Of a DNA stretch of 52,894 nt, positions 27,201 to 52,794 are shown in pieces. The position numbers and the translations under genes were made by a program. The notes below the pieces were generated by a model. That model was not told the DNA's origin and did not search any database. It saw only the letters and a list, made by a program, of their open reading frames with translations. The first letter of the stretch is position 1. Each line of letters begins with the position of its first letter. Source of the DNA: an uncultured Ruminococcus sp. (GTDB taxonomy: Bacteria; Bacillota; Clostridia; Oscillospirales; Ruminococcaceae); assembly GCA_964619105.1 (NCBI GenBank), contig CAZUDC010000001.1:1-52894 (forward strand), in the 5' to 3' direction.

Positions 27201-30200
27201 AAGGTGAATGACAAGGACTACAACAAGAATAATTTCCTTATCCACGATTATTTTATAGCAAAATCTCTCGACAAGGTACACCCCGGAGGAGTGGTAGCAG
27301 TTATTACCTCAAAGGGAACAATGGATAAGGAAAATGACGATATCCGCAAATATATTGCACAGAGAGCAGAGCTTTTAGGTGCTATCCGTTTGCCCGACAC
27401 AGCTTTCAAGGCAAATGCGGGAACGGAAGTCGTATCGGATATTCTGTTTTTACAGAAGCGTGAAATACCTATTGAGATAGATCCCGACAAGGAGGGCTGG
27501 ATAAAGCTCAGTGTATCTGCCGACGGCTTTGATGTTAATAACTATTTTGCTGAGCACCCCGAAATGGTAATGGGTGATTTCAAGGAGGTAAGCGGCAGAT
27601 TCGGTAACGAAGTGACCGTAAAGCTTGATGATCCGTCTATGCTGAAGAGCTTGCTTTCCGAAGCTGTACAGAACATAAAGGGCGAATACAAGGCTGCATC
27701 TGTTATGAAAAATGTTGAGGAGATAAATGCCGATGTTATTCCCGCACCTGCCGAATCCCGTAAATTCAGTTATCAGGCGGTAAACGGCGAACTCTATTAC
27801 AGAGAAGCGGGGGACACTATGGAAAAGGTTCCTGTCAAAGGTAAGGGCAAGGACAAAATCGCCCGTGCTGTTGCTATGGTTGAACTTCGTGATACGGTCA
27901 GAGAGCTGCTTGATTTGCAGATGAACAATTACGACAGCTCCCTTGATGAAAGCATTTCCGAAAGCAGAGTCAAGCTCAACAAGGTATATGACGCGTTCGT
28001 TGCAAAGTACGGTTTTGTTTCCGATAAAAAGAACAGGGACGCATTTAAGGGTGACGATGATTACCAGCTCCTTTCCGCACTTGAAACCGAAAACAAGGAG
28101 ACAGGTACATACACCAAGGCTGACATTTTTGAGCATAACACGGTAAAGCCCAAGACCATTGCCGAACACGTTGAAACAGCACAGGAAGCGCTTATCATAT
28201 CCGTATCGGAAAAAGCAAAGGTGAATTTCGACTTTATGTCCGAGCTTTGCGGTATGGATAAGAACAGAATGATAGCCGACCTAAAAGGACAGATTTTCAG
28301 ACTTCCGCAGGCGGAGGAAAAGTATGTGACCGCAGACGAATATTTGACGGGTAATATCCGCAGGAAAATTGCAGAGCTGAACAATGCTCCCGAGGGTATG
28401 GACGTTTCGGAAAACAGGGCGGCTCTTGAAAAAGCAATCCCGACGAGAGTTGAAGCAAAGGACATTTCCGTAAAGCTGGGTTCTCATTGGATCGCTCCCG
28501 AATATATACGGCAGTTTATCTGCGAAAAATTCAATCCCGATTGGACAGGCAGGAATGAAATGACTGTTCAGTACAGCAAGGCGGCAGGCGAGTGGAAAAT
28601 CGAAGATGTCAATGGTGCTTCAAAGAAAAATTACACCGCAACAAATGTATTCGGAACGCACAGAATGAACGCATACAAGATTTTGGAGGGTATCCTTAAC
28701 AACAGCGATTTGCAGGTTAAGGACCGCAAGAAGGACGAGAACGGTTATGAAATGCGTGACGAAAAGGGCAACTATATCCTTGTGGTAAATCAGGAGGAAA
28801 CCAAGGCGGTACGTCAGGTTGCCAATCTCATTAAGTCCGAATTTCAGGACTGGATTTTTAAAGATCCCGAAAGACGTGAAGATTTGGTTCAGACCTACAA
28901 TGAAATGTACAACTCAATACGTCCGAGAGAATATGACGGCAGTCACCTTAATTTCGTTGGAATGAACACTGATATTACTCTGAAAGAACATCAGAAAAAC
29001 GCCGTTGCAAGAGCTTTATACGGCGGCAATACGCTGCTTGCGCACGCTGTCGGCGCTGGAAAAAGCTATGAGATGATAGCAATAGCTATGGAGGGAAAAA
29101 GGTTGGGACTGCATAATAAATCCCTTTTTGCCGTTCCCAACAGCCTTACTGAGCAAATGGGCAATGATTTCAGAAAGCTTTATCCCAATGCGAATATTCT
29201 TGTTGCCACAAAGAAAGATTTTGAAAAGGCAAACCGCCTGAAATTGTTTGCAAAGATCGCAGCCAACGACTGGGACGCTGTTATCGTCGGTCACACACAG
29301 TTTGACCGAATGGGTCTATCTCCCGAAAGAGAGCAGCAGTACATAACGGAAGAGCTTGCAAAGCTTCGTGAGGAGCTGGAGTATGCCGCAGAATTTGGCG
29401 AAAAGAGCTTTTCTGTCAAGAAGATTGAAAACGCCATTGCAAGCTATGAGGACAGGCTGAACAAGCTCAATGATGCACAGGTCAAGGACGATTTCATTGA
29501 TTTTGAAAAGCTGGGCTTTGACAAGCTGTTCATCGACGAGTGCCATATGTATAAGAACCTCGCCACAGCAACAAAAATGCACAATGTATCGGGCCTCGGC
29601 AGCGGAGGTGCAGCACGTTCCTTTAATCTGCTTATGAAGTCAAGATATATGGACGAGATCACGGGCGGTAAGGGGCAGACTTATGCCAGCGGAACGCCTA
29701 TCTCGAATTCAATGTGCGAGCTTTATACTATGATGCGTTATTTGCAGGCGGATATACTGAAAGACTGCAATATCAATCATTTCGATGAATGGGCTGCGGA
29801 TTTCGGCGATGTCAAGACCGATTACGAATTAAAACCGGAGAGTGACGGCAAATATCAGCTGAAAACACGATTTGCAAAGTTTACGAACCTGCCTGAGCTT
29901 ATGGGTATGTTCAAGGAATGTGCAGATATACGAACTGCCGATACCCTTGACCTTGAAAAGCCAAAAGCACACTATCATGAAGTAGTGGCAGAGCCTTCAA
30001 AGACGCAGAAAAAGCTGATAAAATCTCTTTCCAAGAGAGCTACGGCTATCCGTGACGGAAAGGTCGATCCCCGTGATGATAATATGCTTGTCATTACCAA
30101 TGATGGCAGAAAAATAGGACTTGACCAGAGATTGATAAATTCAACTCTGCCCGATGAAAAGGGGTCAAAGGTTAATCTCTGCATTGATAATGTTTTTGAC

Positions 30201-32171
30201 ATTTACAGCAAAACGGCTGACAAACGCAGTACGCAGTGCATTTTCTGCGATATGTCCACTCCAAAGTCCGACTCCCGACAGGACAGATTTGAGGTTTACA
30301 GACCTAACAGCAGCAAGGAGCTTGACTATGAGCTTCTCCGCAAGAAAATAGGTCTTGGCAATGGTGATGAGGATAATCCAAAGAACATAAATACCTTTGT
30401 TGATGTAAAAAGCTACATTGACAAGCATTCTCCCGAGAAGTCCGACAAGCTGAGTGAGGGTGACATTGTAGTTATCCGAAAGCCTAATTTGGACGATGGA
30501 AAGATGTATTCACAGGCAGCAATATTTGAAAACGGCAGGCTTAATGATGCCGATTCTCCCGAACTTCTTGAAAAGTTTTTTATGTCAGATATTGAAGATA
30601 TTCCGCCAAAGGAATTTAACGTGTATGATGATATTAAGAGCAAGCTTATGGACAGGGGAGTGCCTGAGAATGAAATTGCATTTATCCATGATTATGATAC
30701 TGCGGAAAAGAAGCAGAAGCTTTTTGATAAGATGAACACAGGTGATATTCGTATTCTGTTAGGTTCGACTGCAAAGTGCGGTGCGGGAATGAATGCACAG
30801 AAAAAAATGATTGCTCTGCATCATCTGGACTGTCCGCTGCGTCCGTCTGATATGCAGCAGCGTAATGGTCGAATCGAACGTCAGGGCAATGAAAATTCAG
30901 AAGTCGATATATTCCGTTACGTTACAAATAAATCATTCGACAGTTATTTGTTCCAGATCCTTGAGAACAAGCAGAAGTTCATTTCACAGGTAATGACAAG
31001 CAAGACACCTGAAAGAACCTGTGCTGATATGGACGAAACAGCCCTTGACTATGCGGAGGTAAAGGCACTCTGCGCAGGCAATCCCTTGATAAAAAAGGAA
31101 ATGGAGCTACAAGCCCTTATAAAGGACCTGAAAATGGAAAAATCACGATATTCTGAGTATATCTATGAATTGCAGGATAATATCCGTGTGAAGATACCGG
31201 AAAAGCTTCGTACCAATGAGCTTGTCATTGAGCATCTCCAAAAAGATATGGATACTGCAAATAAGGCTCCGAAGTTTGTTGACGAGGACGGCAAGGAGAC
31301 ACACCCTGTCACTATTATGGGTACAGTGTATAATGACCGCAAGGAAGCAGGCACGAAGCTGAAATCGCTCATTTCCGCAAATGCTGCAAAGATAGCGGAG
31401 GGGAAGATGTTTGATGTGGGAGAATACAGAGGTTTCAAGCTGTCGGTATTCTTTGATGTTCTCTCAAAGCACGTTAAGGCTTGCCTTGACGGTGAAAAGC
31501 ATCATTACTGCGACCTCAATCCCGAAACCGACACAGGCAATCTTATCCGACTGGATAACTGTATCAACAACATACAGAAAAGCATTGAAGATCTCAAAAG
31601 TTCCAATGAAACTATGAGGTCAGAGCTTAAACAAATGGAGGCTGATGTGGACAAGCCGTTCTCAAAGGCGGAAGAGCTTTTGAAAGCAGAAACCGAAATA
31701 GAGGAGGTTCATCTCCAGCTGACGAAATTTGAAATGACAGATGATACGCTGCAAAAGGAAGTCTTTGAACATCTTGCTGATATGTTTCCGCAGGTGCTTG
31801 AGGGTGACAGCGAATATGTGAAATTCAGCGTAAATGGCGGAGAAGATCTTCATGTGGAAATGAACGGTGATGTCCTCACGATCTGTCAGATCTATGAGCA
31901 GAACGGTGACCTTATGTATGACCCAAGAATTGACCTCAGGGTTGATTATGACAATCAGAAGGTAATTCCGTTAAACTATGAAAACAGCGGAATGGGAGTG
32001 TATGAGGAGTATGACTCTGAATTAACACCCGAAACCGCAAAGCAGATGAATGATTTGCTTGATTTTATGGACAGCACTATGCTTGAAAATATTGAAGCAG
32101 CAGGTTATGAGCCTATGGAGATAGAATCTGACAGAGATAGAAATGTCCGTGAAAATGATATGAGCAGATAA
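21219..32171 (+). CDS. Giant polyvalent protein (3650 aa): N-terminal repeat modules, YodL-like domain, N6-adenine DNA methyltransferase, SNF2-type helicase
   Basis: This is a single 10,953-nt ORF. MTase motif I is EPAMGIGNFF (26988-27020) and motif IV is GNVPFG (27177-27194). The helicase has Walker A GAGKS (29052-29066), DECH (29535-29546) and QQRNGRIERQGN (30855-30890). A YodL-like segment IYQLK...SLSVSDIIVL lies at about 25608-25895. Confidence 0.9.
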   Translation: MPEYINKEYYRQLAPNDRTFLNLTAQSVKAVMDRLTAENIKFSATVGYKNTITVSKADSERAMDIVKSFADKNRSSERIIGNTQYKDLPPSERKYINTDPETALQAANILAGDSAIKFSGRINANSATITVAGDSNAAFVRRIIDNIQNMDLVNELREKGYERIADTNGFVNIRNMQTGETAGFESLGEARNMFLDHDNEFFHPTEMRIEDNSLYRIVSDEENADYYISEYDPETGEERAVYLDDEGHCPTFGNVNDAIAYADEHDIGYTNTTGQLMEWITNDEERAADREMYERNIIAQTRFPHVDNRYPNDITYNPDSKAFSLVYFNEEGDGGDGEFIDITVTEDDVLAAYNSDDFMEYIYRNCRQNVIDTHSGYFEDYAKAYIDKPENVVRRYDDIAVSTYLEKNTPIIQKAIKDEITADSASLIIDGYEGTWYVVDTENIDGRELFLLESENYGDEAAGIIIDKDRNVIMGDVWNGFSDYHEKYDNITPEEKLADKVEAEWKAFLENMKKETPAVLIESAYEISTKDNIQTYITEEKLDLTEEQINALLSSRNILSELYDDWLSDEYLNSYSDVAELLKLTADKINETIERENIALFRKENLACAHDIDAFLSKHYNDNTLDSNAALTELLERYSLERIQVVVAANLYKKDFDGRISKENYNWGNEVIGKLSENMRMGINANYLTAHPGLLNLFANTVREYEEKSLEKEQAAPERTAEDIAVGDRYRYKGADVEVVSMKGIYPDDVGISKKERSGSTVYAVTSNVDKYELHRNGIYLGNGEKTVVSELDTAKKYIEDFLDSEYSSTADFSDMQHISIGYTEIGSEEQGDHSLQVEADLENFSVSYFIDDELAKTEKYDSLEQMNREHLSALSFEDMLNVGTTELDRILEEKNAQVKAVLAVSQYDTNRYYIANDVTEESVRNAIKNFDRLFMDLCTLGGTQITEAEFAQYSQTDGVTAIDVNIDEQTMHIYGAENPITSFAEIKGIDEISAHLDLDNNTINFSVITIDDEEPFVTGQYVGKDDITALEEYQEYIADTGKQFADVTVEYYQLGGDNESYNADDDELEYISEHLEDVLRNKSALCLESETYSVTAPTELLETEESEQEEPEHESEIIWTPIPETSDDNGAPTSYFAKYNDETFWISENFNGKFDIEEQDSQGNFAPINDDFSGFMRRGEAEKYFEEHISEYIAERDEAILDAIVGNITEPTAEKREEFARKNNTLNNFFNNNPLAVFREIIKSAGIEPTEDITVSETKKIFNSLKSTEISLMGYTYTLEFEPHDNSLSVRDTASDREANFVWGHAKELMYLIANENNISRENLIHNEVMRGTGFQDGKFRVADFYETSPSKKDFADFLKKEFGIGGHSGDGPVKFTNYDSKGIEIETTAGKENFTWSEVANVISNLMDKGEYITQKDIDNRIRNAQWIINNANENTDFTRLVYAHEILQKYGIEKPAPDNEYKIYQLKNNAENHAIRFESFTDAERYGEAAKPENYELVYTGSLDDFEDSNKLEAIYTKFNLDRPEDFKGHSLSVSDIIVLNNEANYVDTYGFVDVSDRFLGREKEKINLNDYENIRLVRRTEWNDKDLSNAENPAFEEITESYTPDEDGSFVKYAHNTTNSIFVDVWENENSVSSDDMIADIAKHLENMSNGVSSEDYRIELTEKDGNVRKLDNNYFDFVIEKSKVIAETMDFPEIPVDEMSTAVDAENSRTDYGYEPAIGDILENDSGLFRISDISENMITLEETSSLFHDSERMTLADFINRGYSLVEKAEPIEKVKSPLDTLENIHSDEVKSPVDTHSNNFVITDENLGVNGPKARFNANIAAVETLKNIEAEGRAATPDEQKILSGYTGWGAIPQAFDPNNSDWKNEYEKLKTVLDDAEYSEARRSTLNAHYTSPIVINAIYEGLANIGFEKGKILEPAMGIGNFFGAMPENMRESELHGVELDDLTGRIAKQLYPDADIQIKGFEKTAFENNSFDVVVGNVPFGNYKVNDKDYNKNNFLIHDYFIAKSLDKVHPGGVVAVITSKGTMDKENDDIRKYIAQRAELLGAIRLPDTAFKANAGTEVVSDILFLQKREIPIEIDPDKEGWIKLSVSADGFDVNNYFAEHPEMVMGDFKEVSGRFGNEVTVKLDDPSMLKSLLSEAVQNIKGEYKAASVMKNVEEINADVIPAPAESRKFSYQAVNGELYYREAGDTMEKVPVKGKGKDKIARAVAMVELRDTVRELLDLQMNNYDSSLDESISESRVKLNKVYDAFVAKYGFVSDKKNRDAFKGDDDYQLLSALETENKETGTYTKADIFEHNTVKPKTIAEHVETAQEALIISVSEKAKVNFDFMSELCGMDKNRMIADLKGQIFRLPQAEEKYVTADEYLTGNIRRKIAELNNAPEGMDVSENRAALEKAIPTRVEAKDISVKLGSHWIAPEYIRQFICEKFNPDWTGRNEMTVQYSKAAGEWKIEDVNGASKKNYTATNVFGTHRMNAYKILEGILNNSDLQVKDRKKDENGYEMRDEKGNYILVVNQEETKAVRQVANLIKSEFQDWIFKDPERREDLVQTYNEMYNSIRPREYDGSHLNFVGMNTDITLKEHQKNAVARALYGGNTLLAHAVGAGKSYEMIAIAMEGKRLGLHNKSLFAVPNSLTEQMGNDFRKLYPNANILVATKKDFEKANRLKLFAKIAANDWDAVIVGHTQFDRMGLSPEREQQYITEELAKLREELEYAAEFGEKSFSVKKIENAIASYEDRLNKLNDAQVKDDFIDFEKLGFDKLFIDECHMYKNLATATKMHNVSGLGSGGAARSFNLLMKSRYMDEITGGKGQTYASGTPISNSMCELYTMMRYLQADILKDCNINHFDEWAADFGDVKTDYELKPESDGKYQLKTRFAKFTNLPELMGMFKECADIRTADTLDLEKPKAHYHEVVAEPSKTQKKLIKSLSKRATAIRDGKVDPRDDNMLVITNDGRKIGLDQRLINSTLPDEKGSKVNLCIDNVFDIYSKTADKRSTQCIFCDMSTPKSDSRQDRFEVYRPNSSKELDYELLRKKIGLGNGDEDNPKNINTFVDVKSYIDKHSPEKSDKLSEGDIVVIRKPNLDDGKMYSQAAIFENGRLNDADSPELLEKFFMSDIEDIPPKEFNVYDDIKSKLMDRGVPENEIAFIHDYDTAEKKQKLFDKMNTGDIRILLGSTAKCGAGMNAQKKMIALHHLDCPLRPSDMQQRNGRIERQGNENSEVDIFRYVTNKSFDSYLFQILENKQKFISQVMTSKTPERTCADMDETALDYAEVKALCAGNPLIKKEMELQALIKDLKMEKSRYSEYIYELQDNIRVKIPEKLRTNELVIEHLQKDMDTANKAPKFVDEDGKETHPVTIMGTVYNDRKEAGTKLKSLISANAAKIAEGKMFDVGEYRGFKLSVFFDVLSKHVKACLDGEKHHYCDLNPETDTGNLIRLDNCINNIQKSIEDLKSSNETMRSELKQMEADVDKPFSKAEELLKAETEIEEVHLQLTKFEMTDDTLQKEVFEHLADMFPQVLEGDSEYVKFSVNGGEDLHVEMNGDVLTICQIYEQNGDLMYDPRIDLRVDYDNQKVIPLNYENSGMGVYEEYDSELTPETAKQMNDLLDFMDSTMLENIEAAGYEPMEIESDRDRNVRENDMSR

Positions 32172-37288: not shown

Positions 37289-37564
37289 TTATTTTACATT
37301 GTTGATAATATTGTCGGGGAAAAGTGAAGCAGTAAGCAAGTCAGACGGCGAAACATCGAGCGCATCGGCTATATTATAGAAAACTTCCATAGAAAAACAA
37401 TGTGCAATATTCGGTGCTTCAATTACGCTGAGCAGAGAACGGCTTATGCCTGCTTTATCTGCAAGCTTTTCCTGTGATAAACCTCTGATTTTCCTCAATG
37501 ATGATATTGCAACGCCCAACTGAATAAAGCGGTCGTGATTCTTGAATGATACTTCTTTACTCAT
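37289..37564 (-). CDS. XRE-family HTH transcriptional regulator (91 aa)
   Basis: LRKIRGLSQEKLADKAGISRSLLSVIE is a classic Cro/CI-type HTH. The gene is divergent from the nuclease gene. Confidence 0.8.
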   Translation of the reverse strand: MSKEVSFKNHDRFIQLGVAISSLRKIRGLSQEKLADKAGISRSLLSVIEAPNIAHCFSMEVFYNIADALDVSPSDLLTASLFPDNIINNVK

Positions 37565-37801
37565 ATCTGCGCCCTCGCTTAATAATTATACTCTGAATAT
37601 AATTATATCCTGAGATAGAAAATTATTCAGTAATAAACAGTCAGCTATTGACTGTATTAGTGAGCAAGTATATAATATTATTAAGCATAAGTTTGATTTG
37701 GTTTGCTGAAATGCTAAATACCGGTTGTCCGTATTTTTACACAGCTGTTCTGATATAATGAAAGTATAAGCCAAACTTATTACATTGAGGAGGACTTTTT
37801 T

Positions 37802-38926
37802 ATGAAAAAGAAGAGTGTATTTCTATGCCTGCTGCTGGCATTGAGCCTTGTATGCAATCTGTCGGTGATGTCGGCATCGGCGGCAAAAGAGAAAATCACG
37901 CTGAATAATCTGCCCGATTATTCAGGCGAAGCCTATGTTGAGCTGAACGATAATGTACCGGATTTCAGTAAAAAGGATATGACCTCAAAAGCATTTGAGA
38001 AGTACAGTGAGCTTGATGATCTCGGTCGGTGCGGTGTGGCTTATGCCAATGTCTGCACGGAAACAATGCCTACGGAGGAACGTGGAAATATCGGAATGAT
38101 AAAGCCGTCAGGCTGGCATACGGTCAAGTATGACAATGTTGACGGAAAGTATCTGTACAACCGCTGCCATTTGATAGGTTATCAGCTTACAGCCGAAAAT
38201 GCAAACGAGAAGAACCTTATCACTGGAACGAGATATCTTAACGTTGAGGGTTTGCTTCCGTTTGAAAATATGGTCGCTGACTATGTTGAAGAAACCGATA
38301 ATCACGTTTTGTATCGTGTAACGCCTATATTCAAGGGGGATAATCTGCTTGCAAGCGGTGTGCAGATTGAAGCTTACTCCGTTGAGGACACGGGAAAAGG
38401 TGTATCATTCAATGTGTATTGCTATAATGTTCAGCCGGGGATAACGATCGACTATACGAACGGTGACAGCAAGCTTTCTGACGGCACTATTGCTTCAATC
38501 ACGCTTAACTATACCAAATATGCTCTTGAAGTCGGACAGTCCAAAATGCTTGTTGCAGTGACCTCACCCGAATCAGCTGTAAAGTCTGTGACCTGGTATT
38601 CAAGCAACAATAAAATCGCAACAGTTAGTAAGAACGGCAAAGTCACAGCAGTAAAGGCAGGAACGGTGACAATTACGGCAAAGACCTCTAACGGCTTGAA
38701 AGCGACCTGCAAGGTTACGGTCAAAGAAAAATCCGATACAACTGTTATAAACGGCACAGCTAACGGGAATATAACCTATGTTCTTAACACAAATACGAAG
38801 AAATTTCATCTTCCGAGCTGTTCGAGCGTTAAGGATATGAAAGATAAGAATAAGCATGAAGTCACTTGCTCCCGTGATGAGGTTATTGATATGGGGTATG
38901 TGCCTTGTAAGAGGTGTGAGCCGTAA
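37802..38926 (+). CDS. Secreted non-specific DNA/RNA endonuclease (EndA/DNA-entry-nuclease-like) with a Big_2 domain and a C-terminal Cys4 motif
   Basis: The signal peptide is MKKKSVFLCLLLALSLVCNLSVMSASA. The nuclease core is DDLGRCGVAYA...YNRCHLIGYQL...NLITGTRYLN. The Ig-like segment is VTWYSSNNKIATVSKNGKVTAVKAGTVTITAK. The C-terminus is KKFHLPSCSSV...PCKRCEP. Confidence 0.75.
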   Translation: MKKKSVFLCLLLALSLVCNLSVMSASAAKEKITLNNLPDYSGEAYVELNDNVPDFSKKDMTSKAFEKYSELDDLGRCGVAYANVCTETMPTEERGNIGMIKPSGWHTVKYDNVDGKYLYNRCHLIGYQLTAENANEKNLITGTRYLNVEGLLPFENMVADYVEETDNHVLYRVTPIFKGDNLLASGVQIEAYSVEDTGKGVSFNVYCYNVQPGITIDYTNGDSKLSDGTIASITLNYTKYALEVGQSKMLVAVTSPESAVKSVTWYSSNNKIATVSKNGKVTAVKAGTVTITAKTSNGLKATCKVTVKEKSDTTVINGTANGNITYVLNTNTKKFHLPSCSSVKDMKDKNKHEVTCSRDEVIDMGYVPCKRCEP

Positions 38927-39041
38927 TATTTCATTCCTAATTTGACTCATGAAAATTTTACGGAAAATATTTTGATGGTCGATATTTTAATGTGTCTCAC
39001 GATGATGTCACGACTGCTTATTCGCCCACAATTATAAAAAA

Positions 39042-39254: not shown

Positions 39255-39605
39255 TCAATCTTGACCCAGCAACTCTGTATTATCATCCATAATGACATCT
39301 TTAAAAGGAGTATTGTTAATTACCGTTGAACGGAGCACTTCATCCATTGTTGCATATTCTCCCAACAAAGTGTATTCGTGATTTTCGGCATCTAACACAG
39401 TATTTTTTCTATATATACCAAAGACAGCAGTCTTTCCATCGGGAAGAATTGTATCGCTTCTATTGTACATAGAGCCTGTGTTAAAGCGATATTCTACACC
39501 ATTGTATGAAAAATCCAATCCATACCAATGTCCGTCAGAAGGTGCCCATTCGCCAATATACTGAGATGTAAACTCTTCAATACAATTATATTCATTGATT
39601 CTCAT
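39255..39605 (-). CDS. Small acidic cytoplasmic protein (116 aa), immunity/antidote-like partner
   Basis: The start overlaps the upstream stop as ATGA. There is no signal peptide or TM helix. It is the last gene of the cassette. Confidence 0.55.
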   Translation of the reverse strand: MRINEYNCIEEFTSQYIGEWAPSDGHWYGLDFSYNGVEYRFNTGSMYNRSDTILPDGKTAVFGIYRKNTVLDAENHEYTLLGEYATMDEVLRSTVINNTPFKDVIMDDNTELLGQD

Positions 39606-39991
39606 AATAAGTTAAACTCCTTTTTTACCTTTTTTATAAGTTCCATTTCCGCATCAGTTGGAGGAATGCCTGGATCGTTCTTGTTATGCTGCAAATAAAC
39701 GTGACGATGTGGTTTTACCCCATTATGTTCGTGTGCCAGATCAATGCTGACTGCTTGATTATGATTTTCATCATAATATGCCAAATGCTTAAGAATCCCA
39801 TCTTTTACAATGGCGTATATTCTTCCCGGAGTGTGGGAATACTCGGGAGCTTTTACATTATTTGAATCCTGAATGATTACCTTAACATTAGGCTCACCTT
39901 TAAGAATACCAAGAGATTTGTAATGTTGTCCTCCTTCCTTAAACGTAAAATCCCCTATATTTACATCAACAAATGCACCTCTTGAACCCAT
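39602..39991 (-). CDS. 129-aa protein with a His cluster (LAHEHNGVKPHRHVY); function unknown, candidate effector
   Basis: The RBS AGGAGGG lies inside the end of the DUF4417 gene, with a 2-nt gap to the upstream stop. It is translationally coupled to the downstream 116-aa gene. Confidence 0.55.
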   Translation of the reverse strand: MGSRGAFVDVNIGDFTFKEGGQHYKSLGILKGEPNVKVIIQDSNNVKAPEYSHTPGRIYAIVKDGILKHLAYYDENHNQAVSIDLAHEHNGVKPHRHVYLQHNKNDPGIPPTDAEMELIKKVKKEFNLL

Positions 39992-39993
39992 AG

Positions 39994-40683
39994 TTAATTA
40001 CCCTCCTTGATTGTAAAGATATTTGATATGCCCTCAAACTTTAATTGCTCATACGTAGTTACAAACCCATCTACATATTTATAGTTTATAAATGTACCTG
40101 TCATTCCCGGCAACATATCACCAACCACAATAACGATAGGTGGATTTATACGCTTTTTCATTTCTTCAAATCCATTAAGGAACTCGTTAACATAATTGCT
40201 GCAACCCAGCGTAGATATAATTACGACCGAACCTGTTTCAATAGATCCCAAGCAAAGATCGTATGTATCAGGCAATGCCCAACCTACGGTCGGAATGACA
40301 TTGCATCCATAGGATTGCCAAGTCTTTCCCAACCAACGTGACATAAATATATTATGCCTTATTTCATTATAATTCATTGAAGGATAAAGGCTAAAATCGG
40401 GCGTTGCAACGGCAGCGTATGTCTGAAAGATAGGAATCTTCTTTAAAGGCGAATTCCATAATGATAATAACCTTTTATCGTAATTGAACATTGTTAAAAG
40501 AGTGTTGCGGTTATTATTCCTTACAGACATATTCTGCATACCTCTTATACCGAGTGTATCCCAATTGATTTTACTGTAGTCAGCTCGATTTAAAATCGGC
40601 ATATTATTTTGGTCATAGGATACATCGCCGAAGAGCGGACGTATTACCTTGTAGACATCATATTCGGATAAACCTTTATTCAT
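39994..40683 (-). CDS. DUF4417-domain protein (229 aa)
   Basis: The ATG at 40683 follows AGGAGGAA. I trimmed it from the listed TTG at 40728. The core TPDFSLYPSMNYNEIRHNIFMSRWLGKTWQSYGCNVIPTVGW matches my recollection of the DUF4417 signature. Confidence 0.6.
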   Translation of the reverse strand: MNKGLSEYDVYKVIRPLFGDVSYDQNNMPILNRADYSKINWDTLGIRGMQNMSVRNNNRNTLLTMFNYDKRLLSLWNSPLKKIPIFQTYAAVATPDFSLYPSMNYNEIRHNIFMSRWLGKTWQSYGCNVIPTVGWALPDTYDLCLGSIETGSVVIISTLGCSNYVNEFLNGFEEMKKRINPPIVIVVGDMLPGMTGTFINYKYVDGFVTTYEQLKFEGISNIFTIKEGN

Positions 40684-40699
40684 TAATATTCCTCCTAAC

Positions 40700-40728
40700 A
40701 TTTTACCATATTTATGCCATGATTTCAA
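40700..40728 (-). promoter_or_regulatory. Promoter of the DUF4417 cassette: TTGAAA, 17-nt spacer ending in the extended -10 TGG, TAAAAT (minus strand)
   Basis: The -35 is at 40728-40723 and the -10 at 40705-40700, with TGG immediately upstream. It would give a very short leader carrying the SD. Confidence 0.5.
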
Positions 40729-40743
40729 TATGTAATATATATG

Positions 40744-40765
40744 CTTGTTCGCTGATTTCTAACAA
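40744..40765 (-). promoter_or_regulatory. 22-nt conserved box, copy 1 (minus-strand reading TTGTTAGAAATCAGCGAACAAG)
   Basis: It is 20/22 identical to the box at 41915-41936. It lies between the post-immA hairpin and the cassette promoter. Confidence 0.6.
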
Positions 40766-40769
40766 ACTG

Positions 40770-40811
40770 TACATAATATCAAGGAACGTTTCCGTTCCTT
40801 GATATTATGTA
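40770..40811 (-). terminator. Perfect 19-bp hairpin covering the immA-like stop codon (terminator or attenuator)
   Basis: 40770-40788 pairs with 40793-40811 around a 4-nt loop. On the minus strand it is followed by CAGTTTGTT. Confidence 0.55.
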
Positions 40812-41503
40812 TTTTTACCGTTATCAATAAGATTTAACTGTTGTAAACGGTACTTCATCGGATTGAAATTCACTCCGAACGCCTTAGCCAACTTTGAAAT
40901 ATGCGGATTTATCCATCTTTCAAATCGTAATGGTTTTTCCGGAACGCCTTTCATTTTAAGAGAAGCGACAAATGCTTGACTAACAGCTGTTCTCGGCATC
41001 TGAAATGCTGCTGCGCAATAATTTGCCTGATATTCGATGATTTCCAGTGCAGTCATTTTGGGACGTTCTCTGCTCCATGGATTGAAATTTTCCTTTTTAC
41101 AATATTGTCCCATACCGTCAGAGTTTTTAAAGCATCTTGGGTGAAGCAAATAATGAAAGCACTCATGTGTGACGATAAAGCGCTCACGTTCTTCCTCTTT
41201 GGAATCAATTACTGTTCTATCAATAAGAATAGTGCCTTTGGGGACAAGTATTCTTTTAGGAACCATGCCTTTTTCAAAATATGGTGCATTCCATTCATAC
41301 CAAATCATATTCTCAAAAGCAACCATGCCAAGAATCGCCTGGTTAGGCGTTATATAAATCCAATCTGTTCGTGCTCCGATATGATCAATTAGATCGTAAG
41401 GGTCAAAATGCTTAGGCACTCCAAGCCTTTCAGGATCGAATTCTTGATTCAGTTTGTCTGCATAGGTCTCTAACTGTGTCTTTGATAAGTTGTAATATAT
41501 CAA
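40805..41503 (-). CDS. ImmA/IrrE-family (COG2856) zinc metallopeptidase
   Basis: The HEXXH motif is HECFH, within FIVTHECFHYLLH. The TTG start is preceded by AAGGAG and overlaps the xre stop (TTGA). Confidence 0.8.
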   Translation of the reverse strand: MIYYNLSKTQLETYADKLNQEFDPERLGVPKHFDPYDLIDHIGARTDWIYITPNQAILGMVAFENMIWYEWNAPYFEKGMVPKRILVPKGTILIDRTVIDSKEEERERFIVTHECFHYLLHPRCFKNSDGMGQYCKKENFNPWSRERPKMTALEIIEYQANYCAAAFQMPRTAVSQAFVASLKMKGVPEKPLRFERWINPHISKLAKAFGVNFNPMKYRLQQLNLIDNGKNT

Positions 41504-41889
41504 GGGTTATCTCCTTCTTCCTTTTTGGCTTCAAGCATTTTAATGACCTTTAGCCAGTCTTCATCATCTGCATTGAGATCACGGGCCATTCGCAGAGCTA
41601 CTCGTGCATTGTCGGTTCCCATAATATATTCAGGGAGATCCGGTGAAACACTGTTCTCTTTTTCGTTTGCAGCAAGATCAAACAAGGTATTGGTTTCATC
41701 TTCTGACAGTTCGAGAGCAGAAGCTATCTTATATATTTTCTCTTTATCGGGTGGATAACGTCTGTTGTTTTCAATGTCGGACATATAAGCAGGAACAATA
41801 CCGATAATCTCGGCAAGTTTTCTTAAATTGATTTTTTTTTCAAGGCGTTTCTCCCTTACAAAGTCACCGAATCGTTTGTTTATTTCCAT
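41500..41889 (-). CDS. XRE-family HTH repressor (129 aa), partner of the ImmA-like protease
   Basis: The HTH is LRKLAEIIGIVPAYMSDIENNRRYP, with a C-terminal extension. The RBS is GGAGGA. Confidence 0.85.
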   Translation of the reverse strand: MEINKRFGDFVREKRLEKKINLRKLAEIIGIVPAYMSDIENNRRYPPDKEKIYKIASALELSEDETNTLFDLAANEKENSVSPDLPEYIMGTDNARVALRMARDLNADDEDWLKVIKMLEAKKEEGDNP

Positions 41890-41914
41890 ATTATATCCTC
41901 CTGTCAGAATTTCG

Positions 41915-41936
41915 CTTGTTCGCTAATTCCTAACAA
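41915..41936 (-). promoter_or_regulatory. 22-nt conserved box, copy 2 (minus-strand reading TTGTTAGGAATTAGCGAACAAG), overlapping the predicted xre transcription start
   Basis: It starts 2 nt downstream of the xre -10 element. It is 20/22 identical to copy 1. Confidence 0.6.
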
Positions 41937-41938
41937 TG

Positions 41939-41967
41939 ATTTTATCACATATTTCATGGCTTGTCAA
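41939..41967 (-). promoter_or_regulatory. xre promoter: TTGACA, 17-nt spacer ending in the extended -10 TGA, TAAAAT (minus strand)
   Basis: The -35 is at 41967-41962 and the -10 at 41944-41939, with an exact 17-nt spacer. Confidence 0.65.
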
Positions 41968-44265: not shown

Positions 44266-45614
44266 AAAGATATGAAAAATTCAAAGATACAAACCAAATT
44301 TGGCTGCCGGGTCTACCTAACCATTGGGATACCATTAAAATAAAATACCAATTTGAAGAAATTTCTGATAAAAACCACGCTGATGAAGTGCTACTTGTGG
44401 CATCACAGCATAAGGGTGTTGTCCCAAAATCAATTTATGGATTACGCACTGTTGAAGCAACAAAAGGTTTGGAGTTATTCAAACGTGTAATGGTGGGTGA
44501 TTTTGTTATTAGTCTTCGTTCTTTTCAAGGAGGTTTAGAATATGCATATTATCAAGGCATAATCAGCCCTGCCTATACAATTTTGCGTTGTAAAAACAAA
44601 GAGTTTAATCAATATTATCGTTATTTGTTTAAATCGGCTATGTTTATAAAACTTTTAACATTGTGTGTTACAGGTATAAGAGAGGGTCAAAATATTGATT
44701 ATTCTACATTAAAGAAATTTTCCATTCCTGTTCCACCACGTTCCGAGCAAGACCAGATCGTCCGCTACCTCGATTGGCAGACTTCAAGGATAAATAAACT
44801 TATCAATGGATATAAACGGCAGATTGAGTTGCTGGAGGAGAGGAAAAGAACGGTCACTTTCTATTCTGTTGTATATGGATTAAATCATAACATAGAAATG
44901 AAAGACAGCATTATACCTTGGATAGATCATATTCCTGCTCATTGGTCAGTAAAAAACTTAGCACAACTTTTCACACAAGTAAAATGCAAAAATACGAACT
45001 TGTATGAAAAGAATTTATTATCATTAAGTTATGGGAAAATTAAAAGAAGAAATATAGATGCAACGGGAGGATTACTTCCCGAAAGTTTTGAAGGATACAA
45101 TATCATTGAAAAAGATGATATTGTATTACGACTAACAGATTTACAAAATGACCATAAAAGTTTACGAACAGGGATAGCGACCGAAAAAGGTATTGTTACC
45201 TCAGCTTACGTTACCATTAGAAATTTCAGTGAAAACAATCCGCAGTATTTGCATTATTATCTTCATGCATTTGACCTGAATAAAGGCTTTTACAATGTAG
45301 GTGCATCAGGAGTAAGGCAAAGTTTGAACTGGGATAATATCAGAACATTGTCAATACTTTTGCCACCACTTGACGAACAAAATCAAATAGTAGATCATAT
45401 TAATAGGACAGCATTAAAAATGGATGAAGCTAAAAATATGTATGAGAAAAAAATCAAGTTGTTTCATGAATACCGCACCCGTTTGATCTCTGATGTTGTT
45501 ACAGGGCAGATTGATGTGCGTGACATAGATATACCCGAATACGTTTCCGAAGAAGAATATAATGACGATTTACAGGACAATAATAACGATATGGAAGGTG
45601 ATATAAATGAGTGA
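44262..45614 (+). CDS. hsdS: Type I R-M specificity subunit S (two target-recognition domains)
   Basis: Two conserved spacer helices are present: PPRSEQDQIVRYLD...QIELLEERK and PPLDEQNQIVDHIN...KIKLFHEYR. Each follows a variable region. Confidence 0.9.
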   Translation: MKRYEKFKDTNQIWLPGLPNHWDTIKIKYQFEEISDKNHADEVLLVASQHKGVVPKSIYGLRTVEATKGLELFKRVMVGDFVISLRSFQGGLEYAYYQGIISPAYTILRCKNKEFNQYYRYLFKSAMFIKLLTLCVTGIREGQNIDYSTLKKFSIPVPPRSEQDQIVRYLDWQTSRINKLINGYKRQIELLEERKRTVTFYSVVYGLNHNIEMKDSIIPWIDHIPAHWSVKNLAQLFTQVKCKNTNLYEKNLLSLSYGKIKRRNIDATGGLLPESFEGYNIIEKDDIVLRLTDLQNDHKSLRTGIATEKGIVTSAYVTIRNFSENNPQYLHYYLHAFDLNKGFYNVGASGVRQSLNWDNIRTLSILLPPLDEQNQIVDHINRTALKMDEAKNMYEKKIKLFHEYRTRLISDVVTGQIDVRDIDIPEYVSEEEYNDDLQDNNNDMEGDINE

Positions 45615-46977
45615 TATTCTGCGGGAGTCGAATATTATTGAGCTTAAATCAGAACTTAATGATAAACTGGAAAAGGAGATCGTCGCATTTTTGAATTATC
45701 GTGAAGGCGGTGATTTCTATATCGGTGTCAATGACGACGGAGAAGCATTGGAACTTGATAATATAGACGGTATCCAATGTGCTGCCGCTGACCGTATCAA
45801 GAAGAATATCCAGCCGTCAACGCTTGGCCTTTTTGATATTGTCAAAGAGAAATATCAAGGTAAAAATATTATACACATTATCATATCAAGCGGACCTGAA
45901 AAGCCATACTATATAAAACGTCAGGGAATGTCCGAAACAGGCTGCTATATCAGAATAGGCACATCATCTCAGCCTATGAGTCAGGCGATGATTGATGATC
46001 TGTACGCAAGAAGAACACACAATTCACTCAGCAGAATCGTATCACCGAGAAATAATCTTACATTTGAGCAGCTTCAGATATATTATCAGTCGAAAGGTTT
46101 GACGTTAAATGAAAAGTTCCCGGAAAACCTTGATCTGCTGACAGCTGACGGAAAATATAACTACATTGCTTATCTTCTTGCAGACAGTAACGGAACATCA
46201 ATAAAAATTGCAAAGTATTCGGGAACAGACAAAACCGATCTTATAGAAAATGAAGAGTATGGTTATTGTTCACTTATTAAGGCGGCAAAAAGTGTTCTGG
46301 ACCGTCTTGAAATAGAAAATAAAACGCTTGCAAGGATCACAAGCAAGGAGCGGTTGGAAAGAAGATTGGTCGATCCAATTGCTTTGCGTGAGGCGGTTAT
46401 TAATGCAATCGTTCATAATGATTATTCAAGAGAAGTGCCGCCTGTGTTTGAAATATTTTCGGACAGAATACAGATAACATCGTATGGTGGACTTCCGATG
46501 GGCTTGTCGGAAGATGATTTCTTTAATTGCCGTTCTATGTCAAGAAATCGTGAATTAATGCGTATTTTTAAAGATATAGGTCTTGTTGAACAGCTTGGCT
46601 CTGGTATGAGCAGAATACTGAAAGTTTATGACCGAACAGCTTTTGAAATATCAGACCATTTTCTTGTTGTTACATTCAAGTTTCCGAAAGGCAGCACATC
46701 CCAAGTGACACCCCAAGTCAAGCCCCAAGTGACACCCCAAGTCATAATCCAAGATGATTTGCCGAATAGAATACTGGAATTTTGCATAACCGCCAGATCA
46801 AAACAGGAAATGGCATCGCATTTTGGATATAAGGATGCCAAAGGTTTTGCAAAACGTTATATTTCCCCACTTGTTGAGCAAAAGAAATTAGTGTTGACTA
46901 TACCTGATAAACCTACAAGCAGCAAACAGAAGTATATTACATCAGAGTTTGAAGAGGTGAGTGACGATGCCGACTAA
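45607..46977 (+). CDS. AlbA_2 (Schlafen-like) + HATPase_c_4 (RecG-C-like) + wHTH protein embedded in the R-M operon
   Basis: The N-terminus ESNIIELKSELNDKLEKEIVAFLNYREGGDFYIGVND is AlbA_2-like. LREAVINAIVHNDYS...VEQLGSGMSRIL is HATPase_c_4-like. A PQV(T/K) repeat and then a winged-helix-like tail follow. It overlaps both neighbours. Confidence 0.7.
   Translation: MSDILRESNIIELKSELNDKLEKEIVAFLNYREGGDFYIGVNDDGEALELDNIDGIQCAAADRIKKNIQPSTLGLFDIVKEKYQGKNIIHIIISSGPEKPYYIKRQGMSETGCYIRIGTSSQPMSQAMIDDLYARRTHNSLSRIVSPRNNLTFEQLQIYYQSKGLTLNEKFPENLDLLTADGKYNYIAYLLADSNGTSIKIAKYSGTDKTDLIENEEYGYCSLIKAAKSVLDRLEIENKTLARITSKERLERRLVDPIALREAVINAIVHNDYSREVPPVFEIFSDRIQITSYGGLPMGLSEDDFFNCRSMSRNRELMRIFKDIGLVEQLGSGMSRILKVYDRTAFEISDHFLVVTFKFPKGSTSQVTPQVKPQVTPQVIIQDDLPNRILEFCITARSKQEMASHFGYKDAKGFAKRYISPLVEQKKLVLTIPDKPTSSKQKYITSEFEEVSDDAD
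46699..46746 (+). repeat. Four tandem 12-nt units (CCCCAAGTNANN) encoding (P/S)QV(T/K/I) x4
   Basis: The sequence reads ...TCCCAAGTGACA CCCCAAGTCAAG CCCCAAGTGACA CCCCAAGTCATA... Confidence 0.85.
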
Positions 46978-51116: not shown

Positions 51117-51145
51117 TTGACATTGCCGCTTTACTATGGTAAAAT
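51117..51145 (+). promoter_or_regulatory. Near-consensus promoter TTGACA, 17-nt spacer ending in the extended -10 TGG, TAAAAT for the recombinase gene
   Basis: The -35 is at 51117-51122 and the -10 at 51140-51145, with an exact 17-nt spacer. Confidence 0.6.
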
Positions 51146-51192
51146 GTAATTGCAAATATCACTCGCTGTACCATAATGAAAGGAATTTGATT

Positions 51193-52794
51193 ATGGAACA
51201 GAGAATATTAAAAGCAGCTTGTTATTGCAGATTATCGGAAGATGATCTTAACGATGGTACAAGCATATCAATCGAAACGCAGATCACTATCGCAAAGCAG
51301 TATTGTAAAACCAATCGCATAGAAATTGTGGACTTCTATTGTGATGACGGTTACACCGGTACTAATTTTGAGCGTCCTGCGTTCAAGCGAATGATAGGTG
51401 ACATTGAGAAAGGCAAGGTCGATACGGTAGTTGTCAAGGACCTGTCAAGGTTCGGCAGAGAATCAATAAAGGTCAATTATTATACGCAGATGTTTTTCCC
51501 CGAAAACAACATCAACTTTATAATAATTGCCGATAACACCGTAATTACCGCAAACAGCACATATGACTTTATGCTCACCATTAAAAGTGCAATCAATGAG
51601 ATATATCCTGCGGAGGTATCTCAGAAGGTCAGACAGGCATTCAAGGCAAAGTCGATGAATGGGGAGTTCCTTCACCCATATCTTCCGTATGGTTACGTAA
51701 AATCCACTACGGAAAGAAACCATCTTGTCGTTGATAAAAAGAATGCCGATGTTGTCAGAGACATCTTTGAAATGGTGGCGTACAAGGGAATGGGTATGAA
51801 GAAAATTTCCGATTATCTGTTGGAAAACAAAATACTCAGTCCTGCTGCTCTGAGAGATTACTCAAGAGGGGATTACAGTGACCCGAATCCTTACAGCTGG
51901 AATAAGTCCTCGATCAACAATCTTCTGCATAATGAGGTTTATCTTGGACGTATTATTTATGGTAAACGGAGAAAGGTCAATTTCAAAAGTCAGAAGATAG
52001 TGACTACTGCCCGTGATGAGTGGATCATATGCGAAAATGCACATGAAGCCATTATAAGTCAGGAGTTATGGGATGCAGCTCACCAAAGGCTTGACGGACG
52101 CAGACGGGAACGCAAGACGGAATGTGTGGATAACATGTATCGCAGCATTTTGGTATGTGCGGACTGCGGCGGGACAATGTGGATAACAGCACCGCCGAAA
52201 AAGAGCACATTTTTTGTTTGCGGAAACAGCAGGGGCAGAAAAGCCGGTGTTGAGAGATGTACAACACACAATATCAGGCTTGATGATCTCAATGAAGCAG
52301 TGCTTGCTGATATAAATTCATTGCTTTGTGACTGTTGTACTGATTCGGAATCGTTCAGAGAAAAAGTCATGCATAAGGTAGTGGAACAGCTGCCCGATGT
52401 TAATCAGCTTCAGTTTGAGCTTGATGAGCTTGACAGGAAAATCGAACGGGAGAGCCGTAAGTATAAGCAGCTATATGATGATTATTATGATGGCGTAATA
52501 AAAAATGCAATGCTTTTTGAGCAGATGTCAACTGAATGCAATAATCGCATTGAAAGTTATACGGCACAAAAAGAGAAACTGCAATCGGATCTGAAATCAA
52601 CTACCGAACATTTTGACAGTGTGGATAAATTTATCGGGCTTATGCAGCGCTTTAAAAAGGTTGAGAGTCTTAACAAAGAAATCCTTAATACACTGGTGGA
52701 TAAGATAGAGGTCGGAGAGAGGACAAATACGGCGGCAGGGGAATACATACAAAATGTCAGAATAAAATACAAATTCATCGGTCAGCTGAATTGA
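51193..52794 (+). CDS. Large serine recombinase (resolvase domain, recombinase domain, zinc ribbon, coiled coil)
   Basis: The start MEQRILKAACYCRLSEDD carries the catalytic Ser. VVVKDLSRFGRE is present. The zinc ribbon is CADCGG...FFVCGNS...CTTH, followed by a C-terminal coiled coil. I trimmed it from the listed start at 51136. Confidence 0.9.
   Translation: MEQRILKAACYCRLSEDDLNDGTSISIETQITIAKQYCKTNRIEIVDFYCDDGYTGTNFERPAFKRMIGDIEKGKVDTVVVKDLSRFGRESIKVNYYTQMFFPENNINFIIIADNTVITANSTYDFMLTIKSAINEIYPAEVSQKVRQAFKAKSMNGEFLHPYLPYGYVKSTTERNHLVVDKKNADVVRDIFEMVAYKGMGMKKISDYLLENKILSPAALRDYSRGDYSDPNPYSWNKSSINNLLHNEVYLGRIIYGKRRKVNFKSQKIVTTARDEWIICENAHEAIISQELWDAAHQRLDGRRRERKTECVDNMYRSILVCADCGGTMWITAPPKKSTFFVCGNSRGRKAGVERCTTHNIRLDDLNEAVLADINSLLCDCCTDSESFREKVMHKVVEQLPDVNQLQFELDELDRKIERESRKYKQLYDDYYDGVIKNAMLFEQMSTECNNRIESYTAQKEKLQSDLKSTTEHFDSVDKFIGLMQRFKKVESLNKEILNTLVDKIEVGERTNTAAGEYIQNVRIKYKFIGQLN

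Follow-up and report, generated by a model that had tools for sequence, protein, structure and literature searches.

The five genes considered here occupy positions 39255-41967 of a 52,894-nucleotide stretch of DNA from an uncultured Ruminococcus sp. (GenBank assembly GCA_964619105.1, contig CAZUDC010000001.1, positions 1 to 52,894; the whole of this stretch is referred to as the window). All of them lie on the minus strand: a repressor gene and a peptidase gene, together termed the switch, are followed by three genes, termed the payload, which encode a DUF4417 protein, a 129-amino-acid protein and an acidic 116-amino-acid protein. An earlier note made from the sequence alone had placed five minus-strand genes at the coordinates listed below, and both the list of open reading frames (ORFs) and the minus-strand sequence agree with it. 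The genes and their regulatory DNA are as follows.

41889-41500, minus strand: xre, encoding a CapH-like XRE-family helix-turn-helix (HTH) repressor of 129 amino acids
41503-40805, minus strand: immA-like gene, encoding an M78 zinc metallopeptidase of the ImmA/IrrE type with an HECFH motif (232 amino acids, TTG start)
40683-39994, minus strand: DUF4417 gene (229 amino acids)
39991-39602, minus strand: gene for the 129-amino-acid protein, an effector or toxin candidate with a His cluster
39605-39255, minus strand: gene for the acidic 116-amino-acid protein, a candidate cognate immunity protein
41967-41939, minus strand: predicted promoter P1 of xre-immA (TTGACA-17-TAAAAT, TG-extended, 11/12)
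41914-41936, minus strand: box copy 1, candidate XRE operator, at approximately -4 to +19 from the predicted P1 start site
40770-40811: hairpin over the immA stop codon (19-nt arms, 100% complementary, 4-nt loop)
40743-40765, minus strand: box copy 2, at approximately -72 to -50, with 14 nt between it and the -35 element of P2
40728-40700, minus strand: predicted promoter P2 of the payload (TTGAAA-17-TAAAAT, TG-extended, 10/12)

The immA-like gene begins at a TTG codon within a TTGA that produces a 4-nt overlap with the xre stop codon, and the start of the DUF4417 gene is the ATG behind an AGGAGG rather than a TTG further upstream. The DUF4417 and 129-amino-acid genes are separated by a 2-nt gap (TAA-CT-ATG), the 129- and 116-amino-acid genes overlap in an ATGA, and at both payload junctions the Shine-Dalgarno sequence lies within the preceding gene, all as had been claimed; translational coupling of the three payload genes is evident from the sequence of these junctions. 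The 4-nt overlap between the last two genes is identical in all of the full cassettes for which gene coordinates were checked.

The hairpin stands between the switch genes and the payload promoter, and the minus-strand T-tract behind it is weak; a repeat scan agrees with its earlier description as a perfect 19-bp structure covering the immA stop codon. The region contains 17 promoter-like sites compared with 14.1 +/- 3.8 in shuffled sequences, i.e. it is not enriched in them, and just the two top-scoring and correctly placed sites are considered to be meaningful, one of which is the payload promoter previously proposed at 40700-40728. The box said to be repeated at the xre start and upstream of P2 is present at both positions, with a length of 23 nt instead of the 22 nt first reported; the two copies are identical at 21/23 positions and copy 1 contains TTGTT...AACAA inverted half-sites. 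This geometry would suit autorepression of xre, while repression of the payload does not follow from geometry alone. The M78 and DUF4417 genes are 140-330 nt apart in other cassettes, compared with 121 nt in the window. Most of the spacers examined (L001:9084-9317, L014:8740-8937, L020:8569-8926, L024 on the reverse strand and L022:3058-3237, where L numbers designate loci) open straight after the M78 stop codon with a GGTGAT-like (Shine-Dalgarno-like) stretch and a start codon, which may represent a small ORF or an RNA element absent from the window; a gene of 59 amino acids is called in the spacer of L022.

The xre product matches Pfam HTH_3 (1.5e-9) and PADLOC capH (9.7e-12, residues 3-126), and the immA-like product matches Pfam Peptidase_M78 (1.1e-8), PADLOC capP (7.3e-9) and phrog_4031 (2.7e-16). 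An HTH XRE repressor beside an HExxH M78 peptidase is the composition of a derepression switch; as in CapH/CapP, ImmR/ImmA and DdrO/IrrE, a small HTH repressor is followed by a COG2856/M78 peptidase with an HExxH motif, and a candidate operator lies at the pair's own promoter. CapH/CapP-like pairs control many immune operons, and DISARM-associated CapH-CapP fusions have been reported, which resemble the fused repressor-peptidase found at locus L140. Such pairs are normally divergent from the operon that they control, whereas the pair in the window is co-oriented with the payload, with the hairpin and a second promoter in between, and the genes under the window switch correspond to no known immune system.

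Co-occurrence of the payload with XRE/ImmA, a point that the earlier note had proposed to survey, was assessed at 31 species-level loci with a full payload and sufficient upstream DNA. An XRE/M78 regulator, split or fused, was found upstream of the payload in 26 of them, comprising 21 split pairs identified by an HExxH scan, two split pairs recognized by eye and three fused HTH-M78 proteins of 361-388 amino acids, which occur in Succinivibrionaceae. Control of the cassette by XRE/ImmA, as previously proposed, is favoured by this linkage and is weakened by the ambiguous operator geometry at P2 and by the co-orientation, unlike that of CapH/CapP. Pairwise identity, averaged over six cassettes, is 30% for the XRE protein and 20% for the M78 protein, compared with 58% for DUF4417, 73% for the 129-amino-acid protein and 63% for the 116-amino-acid protein. 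Since identity is 20-30% in the switch and 58-73% in the payload, varied switches have been retained on a single payload; the switch is either exchanged or fast-evolving, and the payload is conserved, which argues that the payload needs some switch of the XRE/M78 type.

ImmR/ImmA-type pairs are known to control prophages and integrative and conjugative elements (ICEs), and the pair described here could in principle be the repressor and anti-repressor of a surrounding ICE or prophage, with the genes downstream being unrelated late or cargo genes or the remains of a decaying prophage fragment. Two of the three payload genes are indeed of phage type, and conjugation genes and a recombinase lie within the window. 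This explanation is nonetheless highly improbable: several genomes carry the five genes together without other phage or ICE genes, a single payload is kept with at least five classes of switch, and strong purifying selection acts on the payload in different phyla, the 129-amino-acid protein being 70-94% identical among its best 120 representatives.

The first payload protein matches DUF4417 (PF14386) over residues 51-191 with 113.6 bits, against a gathering cut-off of 28.9. The family comprises 6,518 protein clusters at E <= 1e-5 among 8,000 candidates scored, and phages of Streptococcus, Mycobacterium, Gordonia and gut Clostridia commonly carry it. Residues Asp69, Thr94-Pro-Asp-Phe-Ser98 (TPDFS), Asn111, Gln123, Thr132, Ser157, Glu174 and Arg178 are conserved, together with the motifs IPT..W and IST.G, and FxxD, TPDFS and IPT..W are common to the window protein and the phage members. 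The AlphaFold2 (AF2) model (pLDDT 88.4, pTM 0.87) has an alpha/beta fold in which the conserved polar residues are mostly located at or just past predicted strands, and the protein appears to be enzyme-like, i.e. a candidate enzyme. A Foldseek comparison with the PDB gave nothing at E <= 0.001 (best E 0.028, TM 0.29, weakly EAL/TIM-barrel-like), and no enzymatic class can be assigned from it; a sequence search of the PDB returned only designer-PPR hits, which were rejected as spurious, no stretch passing by itself. Fusions of a ParB-CTPase domain to DUF4417 are enriched in prophages and have been suggested to have an anti-defence or phage-host role (bioRxiv 10.1101/2025.10.10.680097); Javan23_0032 is such a fusion, with the ParB domain N-terminal. 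The window protein shares the DUF4417 domain with these fusions, but lacks the ParB domain and carries a cassette-specific N-terminal extension.

The 129-amino-acid protein begins with MGSRGAF and contains the invariant pattern ID..HxH....PHxH....H; in an alignment of cassette and phage homologues, Met1-Gly2-x-Arg4-Gly5 is also invariant. It matches phrog_9479 (2e-13), and sub-threshold matches to Ntox24 (PF15529) were obtained for six of 12 members of the family (best 2.9e-4). The AF2 model (pLDDT 86.4) is all-beta with a C-terminal helix, and Tyr59 and the His residues are invariant. Comparison of this model with BFVD gave top matches with probability 1.0, E 1e-3 to 9e-3 and TM ~0.45, including part of a 406-amino-acid phage 'minor capsid protein' (E 8e-3). 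Ntox24 has been reported on MuF phage-head proteins (PMC3482391), and a link between the 129-amino-acid protein and MuF-borne Ntox24 gains modest support from this minor capsid protein match. Sequence searches of the PDB with the 129- and 116-amino-acid proteins yielded nothing credible. The 129-amino-acid family has 364 cluster representatives, the best 120 of which (70-94% identity) are nearly all exactly 129 amino acids long. Large toxins carrying the domain were also sought: the 235 clusters retrieved from 1.84 billion representative proteins are nearly all stand-alone proteins of 110-145 amino acids, and a 1102-amino-acid ORF at L017 that might have been taken for a large toxin ending in this domain is an unrelated protein replacing the 5' part of the cassette, followed by a 92-codon remnant. 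In the database proteins P0477, P0445 and P0415 the C-terminal half of a 129-amino-acid-family protein directly follows either an N-terminal ParB domain or the first half of a DUF4417 domain; such joins may have arisen by deletion or from frameshifts in the gene calls and need not be genuine architectures.

Both of these proteins have relatives in annotated phage genomes searched by tblastn. DUF4417 is present in 492 phage records, and full-length homologues of the 129-amino-acid protein with 28-35% identity occur in Streptococcus Javan prophages, A25/Str01-like phages, Roseburia phage Jekyll and Dorea phage DO134P1. In Streptococcus phage Javan23, Jekyll and DO134P1 the two genes lie directly before terS/terL; they overlap by 11 nt in Javan23 and DO134P1, and a 90-amino-acid ORF separates them in Jekyll. 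The neighbours of the phage module are terminase, portal and MuF genes. The DUF4417 and 129-amino-acid genes of the cassette are thus the cellular counterpart of two genes that phages very commonly carry as a pair. The previous picture of a payload of three proteins with no assignable function changes in that two of its members correspond to this phage pair. It had further been reasoned that homologues sitting in phage structural modules without any defence association would count against a defence or toxin-immunity role; the phage pair beside the terminase genes counts in part against that role.

The association of DUF4417 with a particular N-terminal sequence in the gene that follows extends well beyond Ntox24-like proteins. 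In the mycobacteriophage ArcherNM, gene 1 encodes DUF4417 and the overlapping gene 2 encodes an ADP-ribosyltransferase toxin that starts with MGKRGGSGGGGG. A survey of 80 IMG/VR loci retrieved with a DUF4417 profile, in which the ORF just downstream was inspected, revealed the motif G[GSK]R[GS][AGS] within the first 40 residues of 48 of the 80 ORFs after DUF4417, compared with 56 of 1656 other ORFs from the same loci. In 34 of the 80 loci the motif stands straight after the initiator methionine, a residue that methionine aminopeptidase strips when it precedes glycine. Other versions carry a leader, as in MIKLDLQFF'GGRGASSG, MNLQYF'GGRGSSSG and MNKMKLNLQLF'GGRGAGSG, and these ..(D/N)LQ(F/L)F' leaders match the motif at which the Prp cysteine protease cleaves L27 and phage capsid proteins, MLxx(D/N)LQ(F/L)F'A(S/H)KK (PMC9405229; PMC5744158). 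Since either methionine removal or Prp cleavage would act on them, both designs should yield a single mature N-terminus, Gly-Gly/Ser-Arg-Gly-Ala/Ser.

A reciprocal test, in which viral contigs were searched with a DNA pattern for MGGRGA at the start of ORFs of at least 50 amino acids with at least 700 nt of upstream sequence, found DUF4417 within 1.5 kb upstream in 49 of the 60 ORFs, and several of the other hits fall on Met codons inside longer ORFs and are chance matches. The genetic linkage between DUF4417 and the GGRG N-terminus is thus shown in the surveyed loci. The possibility that GGRG acts at the level of DNA, for instance as a pac site, was ruled out, as the arginine is encoded by CGT or AGA and the glycine codons vary; the use of both arginine codons indicates selection on the protein. 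The C-terminal parts behind GGRG include Ntox24-like domains, Gln_amidase ('Papain fold toxin 1, glutamine deamidase'; 1.6e-14), ADPrib_exo_Tox (7e-19; ArcherNM gp2) and HEMGH/HEIGH (HExxH) peptidase-like domains, in addition to at least eight more unrelated types. Arrays of two or three GGRG genes after a single DUF4417 gene are frequent in phages and were observed at L037, L039, L081, L089, L043, L045, L087 and L096. The two glutamine-deamidase versions are each trailed by a related ORF of 76-89 amino acids, likely to be their own immunity gene, and then by terS/terL. No prior description of the link between DUF4417 and GGRG was found in the literature searched, and the study of ParB-CTPase-DUF4417 fusions (bioRxiv 10.1101/2025.10.10.680097) makes no mention of a connection between DUF4417 and downstream genes with a GGRG N-terminus.

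The 116-amino-acid protein always ends in ..GQD and its family, with 146 cluster representatives of 50-91% identity, is restricted to cassettes of this type; no match was found in Pfam, NCBIfam, PADLOC or the PDB, and the gene is absent from the phage genomes inspected. NCBIfam likewise gave no additional assignment for the other two payload proteins. A profile of the protein retrieved 78 loci from genomes (one per species), and in approximately 25 of these the gene is present without a DUF4417 or 129-amino-acid gene. Tandem copies occur, three in L135 and two in L132, and L117 and L123 retain only the XRE, M78 and 116-amino-acid genes, the two middle genes being missing. At L125, L147, L161, L167, L170, L122 and L017 a 5'-truncated remnant of the 129-amino-acid gene, with a breakpoint that varies from approximately residue 34 to past residue 100, precedes an intact 116-amino-acid gene. 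At L152 and L153 (Erysipelotrichaceae) the order is DUF4417, a divergent MGGRGTFA protein of 123 amino acids, a different 95-amino-acid gene, a canonical 129-amino-acid remnant disrupted by stop codons and an intact 116-amino-acid gene; a toxin candidate starting with MGGRGTFA and the 95-amino-acid gene have been inserted ahead of a displaced remnant-plus-116 module. Such displaced toxin fragments with orphan immunity genes are known from contact-dependent inhibition (CDI) and Rhs loci. The 116-amino-acid gene thus behaves like an immunity gene, and the orphan, tandem and remnant patterns, together with the conserved ATGA coupling, are the main evidence for viewing the 129- and 116-amino-acid proteins as toxin and antidote. 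The effector-immunity pairing put forward in the earlier note is supported by these comparative data, namely orphans, arrays and remnants, although the 116-amino-acid protein finds no counterpart among known immunity families.

Taken together, these observations make it moderately probable that the locus encodes an inducible toxin-immunity cassette of the polymorphic kind, descended from phage effectors. As judged from box geometry and protein family, the XRE repressor would bind both copies of the 23-nt box, the one at the xre promoter and the one beside the payload promoter, and keep the locus silent. By homology to ImmR/ImmA, DdrO/IrrE and CapH/CapP, a damage or infection signal would activate the M78 peptidase, which would cleave the repressor, and P2 would then transcribe the three coupled payload genes. 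Removal of the initiator methionine would leave the 129-amino-acid effector with a Gly-Ser-Arg-Gly N-terminus ahead of its Ntox24-like, all-beta, His-rich domain, and DUF4417, the obligatory partner of such N-termini, probably recognizes, modifies or loads the effector through it. In the producer cell the 116-amino-acid protein would neutralize the effector, as the population-genetic patterns suggest. Both the toxicity of the 129-amino-acid protein and the repression by XRE and its relief by M78 are candidate functions at the level of sequence.

Delivery of the effector to other cells is favoured by the orphan and displaced immunity modules. When the Prp-type leaders, which head proteins share, and the location beside packaging genes are also considered, phage particles are the indicated vehicle; for a cassette that has no capsid genes this is speculative and rather doubtful. 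Equally tentative is the broader idea that DUF4417 constitutes a new handling route, using the free Gly-Gly/Ser-Arg-Gly terminus to load or activate changeable toxins, which in phages would most likely mean that the toxins are packaged into the head and injected together with the DNA. The cassette would then be a 'hitch-hiking bacteriocin': the damage signal that induces resident prophages would also induce it, export would take place inside or along with the prophage particles, and the orphan 116-amino-acid genes widespread in the community would counter it.

Several observations weigh against a toxin-immunity cassette governed by this switch. The box upstream of the P2 -35 element could equally mean activation or nothing, no box common to the xre and payload promoters emerged from an exact-word comparison of six other cassettes, that of the window alone being clear, and five of the 31 full-payload loci have no obvious switch. 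The Ntox24 score of the 129-amino-acid protein, 16.7 bits, is below the Pfam threshold of 24, and neither the DUF4417 nor the 129-amino-acid AF2 model has a significant neighbour in the PDB (best Foldseek E 0.5 for the latter). Imm50 and Imm53, which Zhang et al. tied to Ntox24, were considered and do not match the 116-amino-acid family, nor does any other known immunity family. Machinery for export or delivery is not encoded in the cassette. Moreover, most phage homologues of the 129-amino-acid protein are not followed by an immunity gene, and the domain may therefore be harmless to the cell that produces it.

The likeliest alternative, itself rather unlikely, is an abortive-infection defence built from the same parts and differing in where the toxin acts. 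Infection or damage would derepress the payload, DUF4417 would activate the toxin or a labile 116-amino-acid antitoxin would be outrun, and the cell would die or arrest before phage release. The match of the switch proteins to capH and capP, the control of many immune operons by CapH/CapP-like pairs and the defence-rich settings of the window, L007, L014-19, L001 and L143 are all in keeping with such a system. On the other hand, no PADLOC family, candidate systems included, matches the three payload proteins at E <= 0.1, several cassettes lie amid housekeeping genes (L020, L023, L024) and the nearest relatives of the payload are phage genes rather than host genes. A toxin that is co-transcribed and coupled with its immunity protein would be neutralized anyway, and immunity arrays and displaced remnant modules typify delivered polymorphic toxins more than abortive-infection systems. 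The anti-phage role suggested in the earlier note is a candidate role, weakened by the lack of a PADLOC match for the payload and by the housekeeping flanks of L020, L023 and L024.

It is still less probable, indeed quite improbable, that the cassette is an addiction or stabilization module of its carrier element, akin to a type II toxin-antitoxin (TA) system, with the XRE/M78 pair linking expression to the life cycle of the element. The mobile character of some settings would fit, since type IV secretion system (T4SS) genes share the window with genes for a polyvalent protein and a large serine recombinase, and the cassette of L001-L006 lies in a small element with recombinases, a capsid gene, Terminase_4 and a DUF3987 primase; Ntox24 is also found in TA systems according to Zhang et al. 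(PMC3482391). Many copies, however, have no mobile-element genes nearby, and this explanation leaves DUF4417, which is always present, without a role. In type II systems the antitoxin is usually encoded upstream of the toxin, binds DNA and autoregulates; the toxin-then-immunity order found here and the lack of a DNA-binding domain in the 116-amino-acid protein are unlike that classical organization.

The toxin-immunity cassette is better compared with two kinds of known systems. With polymorphic toxins of the MuF type, including Ntox24 (PMC3482391), it shares a constant N-terminal part joined to variable C-terminal toxin domains, an immunity gene directly downstream (in the cellular cassettes), orphans, arrays, displaced modules and an association with phages. 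It differs from them in that the constant part is a short, processed GGRG[A/S] sequence with a Gly/Ser-rich linker and contains no MuF, LXG, RHS or PAAR domain, in that the proteins are small (~50-260 amino acids), tied to a separate DUF4417 protein and without a linked secretion system, and in that the Ntox24 match of the 129-amino-acid protein is sub-threshold. Colicin-type SOS operons likewise combine a damage-responsive repressor with a toxin gene and, behind it, the matching immunity gene, are mobile and leave immunity-only copies in the community. Unlike those operons, the cassette has no LexA box, lysis gene, or receptor-binding or translocation domain, includes the additional, enzyme-like DUF4417 and, by analogy, would be switched through proteolysis by a dedicated peptidase.

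The payload, the pairing of DUF4417 with GGRG and the 116-amino-acid immunity family are new in the literature searched, while the switch and the toxin-immunity logic were already known. The fixed N-terminal motif on changeable toxin domains allows a role to be proposed for the DUF4417 family, identifies a new class of phage-borne effectors and accounts for a conserved cassette of gut and rumen bacteria. Should the locus prove to be a damage-induced weapon or an abortive-infection system, it would add a new type of payload to the systems regulated by XRE/M78 and a new immunity family that is apparently spreading across rumen phyla, as far as the taxonomy of metagenome-assembled genomes (MAGs) can be relied upon.

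The 78 loci retrieved with the 116-amino-acid profile belong mostly to Lachnospiraceae, Oscillospiraceae, Ruminococcus, Christensenellaceae and Erysipelotrichaceae, and also to Negativicutes and to rumen Gammaproteobacteria, namely Succinimonas amylolytica DSM 2873, with two copies, and Ruminobacter. In all, the cassette recurs in some 80 species, chiefly Clostridia. Cassettes or 116-amino-acid genes were also seen in MAGs labelled Paludibacteraceae, Planctomycetia, Dehalococcoidales and Bacteroidaceae (L111, L135, L151, L163, L176), which could reflect cross-phylum transfer or binning errors; transfer to Gammaproteobacteria, at least, is real, since the Succinimonas and Ruminobacter genomes are from isolates.

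The five genes occur together not just in the window but at seven further locations (L001, L007, L014, L020, L023, L024 and L184-189), and are a conserved, self-contained unit in unrelated settings. In L001-L006 (e.g. L001:5600-19157), NERD, Nmad4 and DUF4314/DUF5049 genes are followed by the cassette, two large serine recombinases, SHOCT, Phage_capsid, Terminase_4, a DUF3987 primase and HTH_17, the whole being located at differing chromosomal sites and resembling a phage satellite or an integrative mobilizable element. The cassette adjoins another type I restriction-modification (R-M) system in L007, lies between Fic genes and near HEPN_Apea and HxsD/radical-SAM genes in L014-19, and has DUF4357/RAMA nearby in L143. 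The flanks are purely housekeeping in L020 and L023, and in L024, which was deposited as 'Bacteriophage sp.', the translations of the flanking ORFs resemble phosphate-ABC (pst) genes. The defence-island context previously described is thus frequent (type I R-M, HEPN_Apea, Fic, NERD), with L020, L023 and L024 as housekeeping-flanked exceptions.

In the window, the GC content is 35-39% from approximately position 39000 to the end, compared with 41-47% upstream, in agreement with the AT-rich island that had been described around the cassette. The type I R-M operon to the right of the cassette is accompanied by an HTH gene and a gene for a large serine recombinase, and the left 32 kb of the window hold conjugation genes. 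The main features of these surroundings are as follows.

3860-5992: T4SS coupling protein
8507-11575: VirB4/TraG-like ATPase
14576-16912: topoisomerase
18825-20423: GGDEF protein
21219-32171: polyvalent protein of 3650 amino acids (YodL, LPD18, DUF3848/3849, Eco57I-methylase, ResIII)
51136-52794: DUF4368 serine recombinase

Given the conjugation genes and the DUF4368 recombinase, much of the window may be a single ICE, and the cassette is cargo of a mobile region, since conjugation genes lie to its left and a large serine recombinase to its right. Within the R-M operon, a gene with SLFN/AlbA_2, HATPase_c_4 and Fic-like_C domains (45607-46977) is nested between hsdS and hsdR and overlaps both. 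On the other side of the cassette, positions 37802-38926 encode a secreted-looking Endonuclea_NS_2 and Big_2 protein with an Ada-like zinc C-terminus. In related strains (L184-L189), this gene and a small HTH gene at 37289-37564 accompany the cassette and its R-M operon, and the DNA beyond carries AraC and AP_endonuc_2 genes in some contigs and MerR and aldo-keto reductase genes in others; because the DNA past the genes at 37289-38926 differs among these strains, the island probably starts close to 37250 rather than at 39000.

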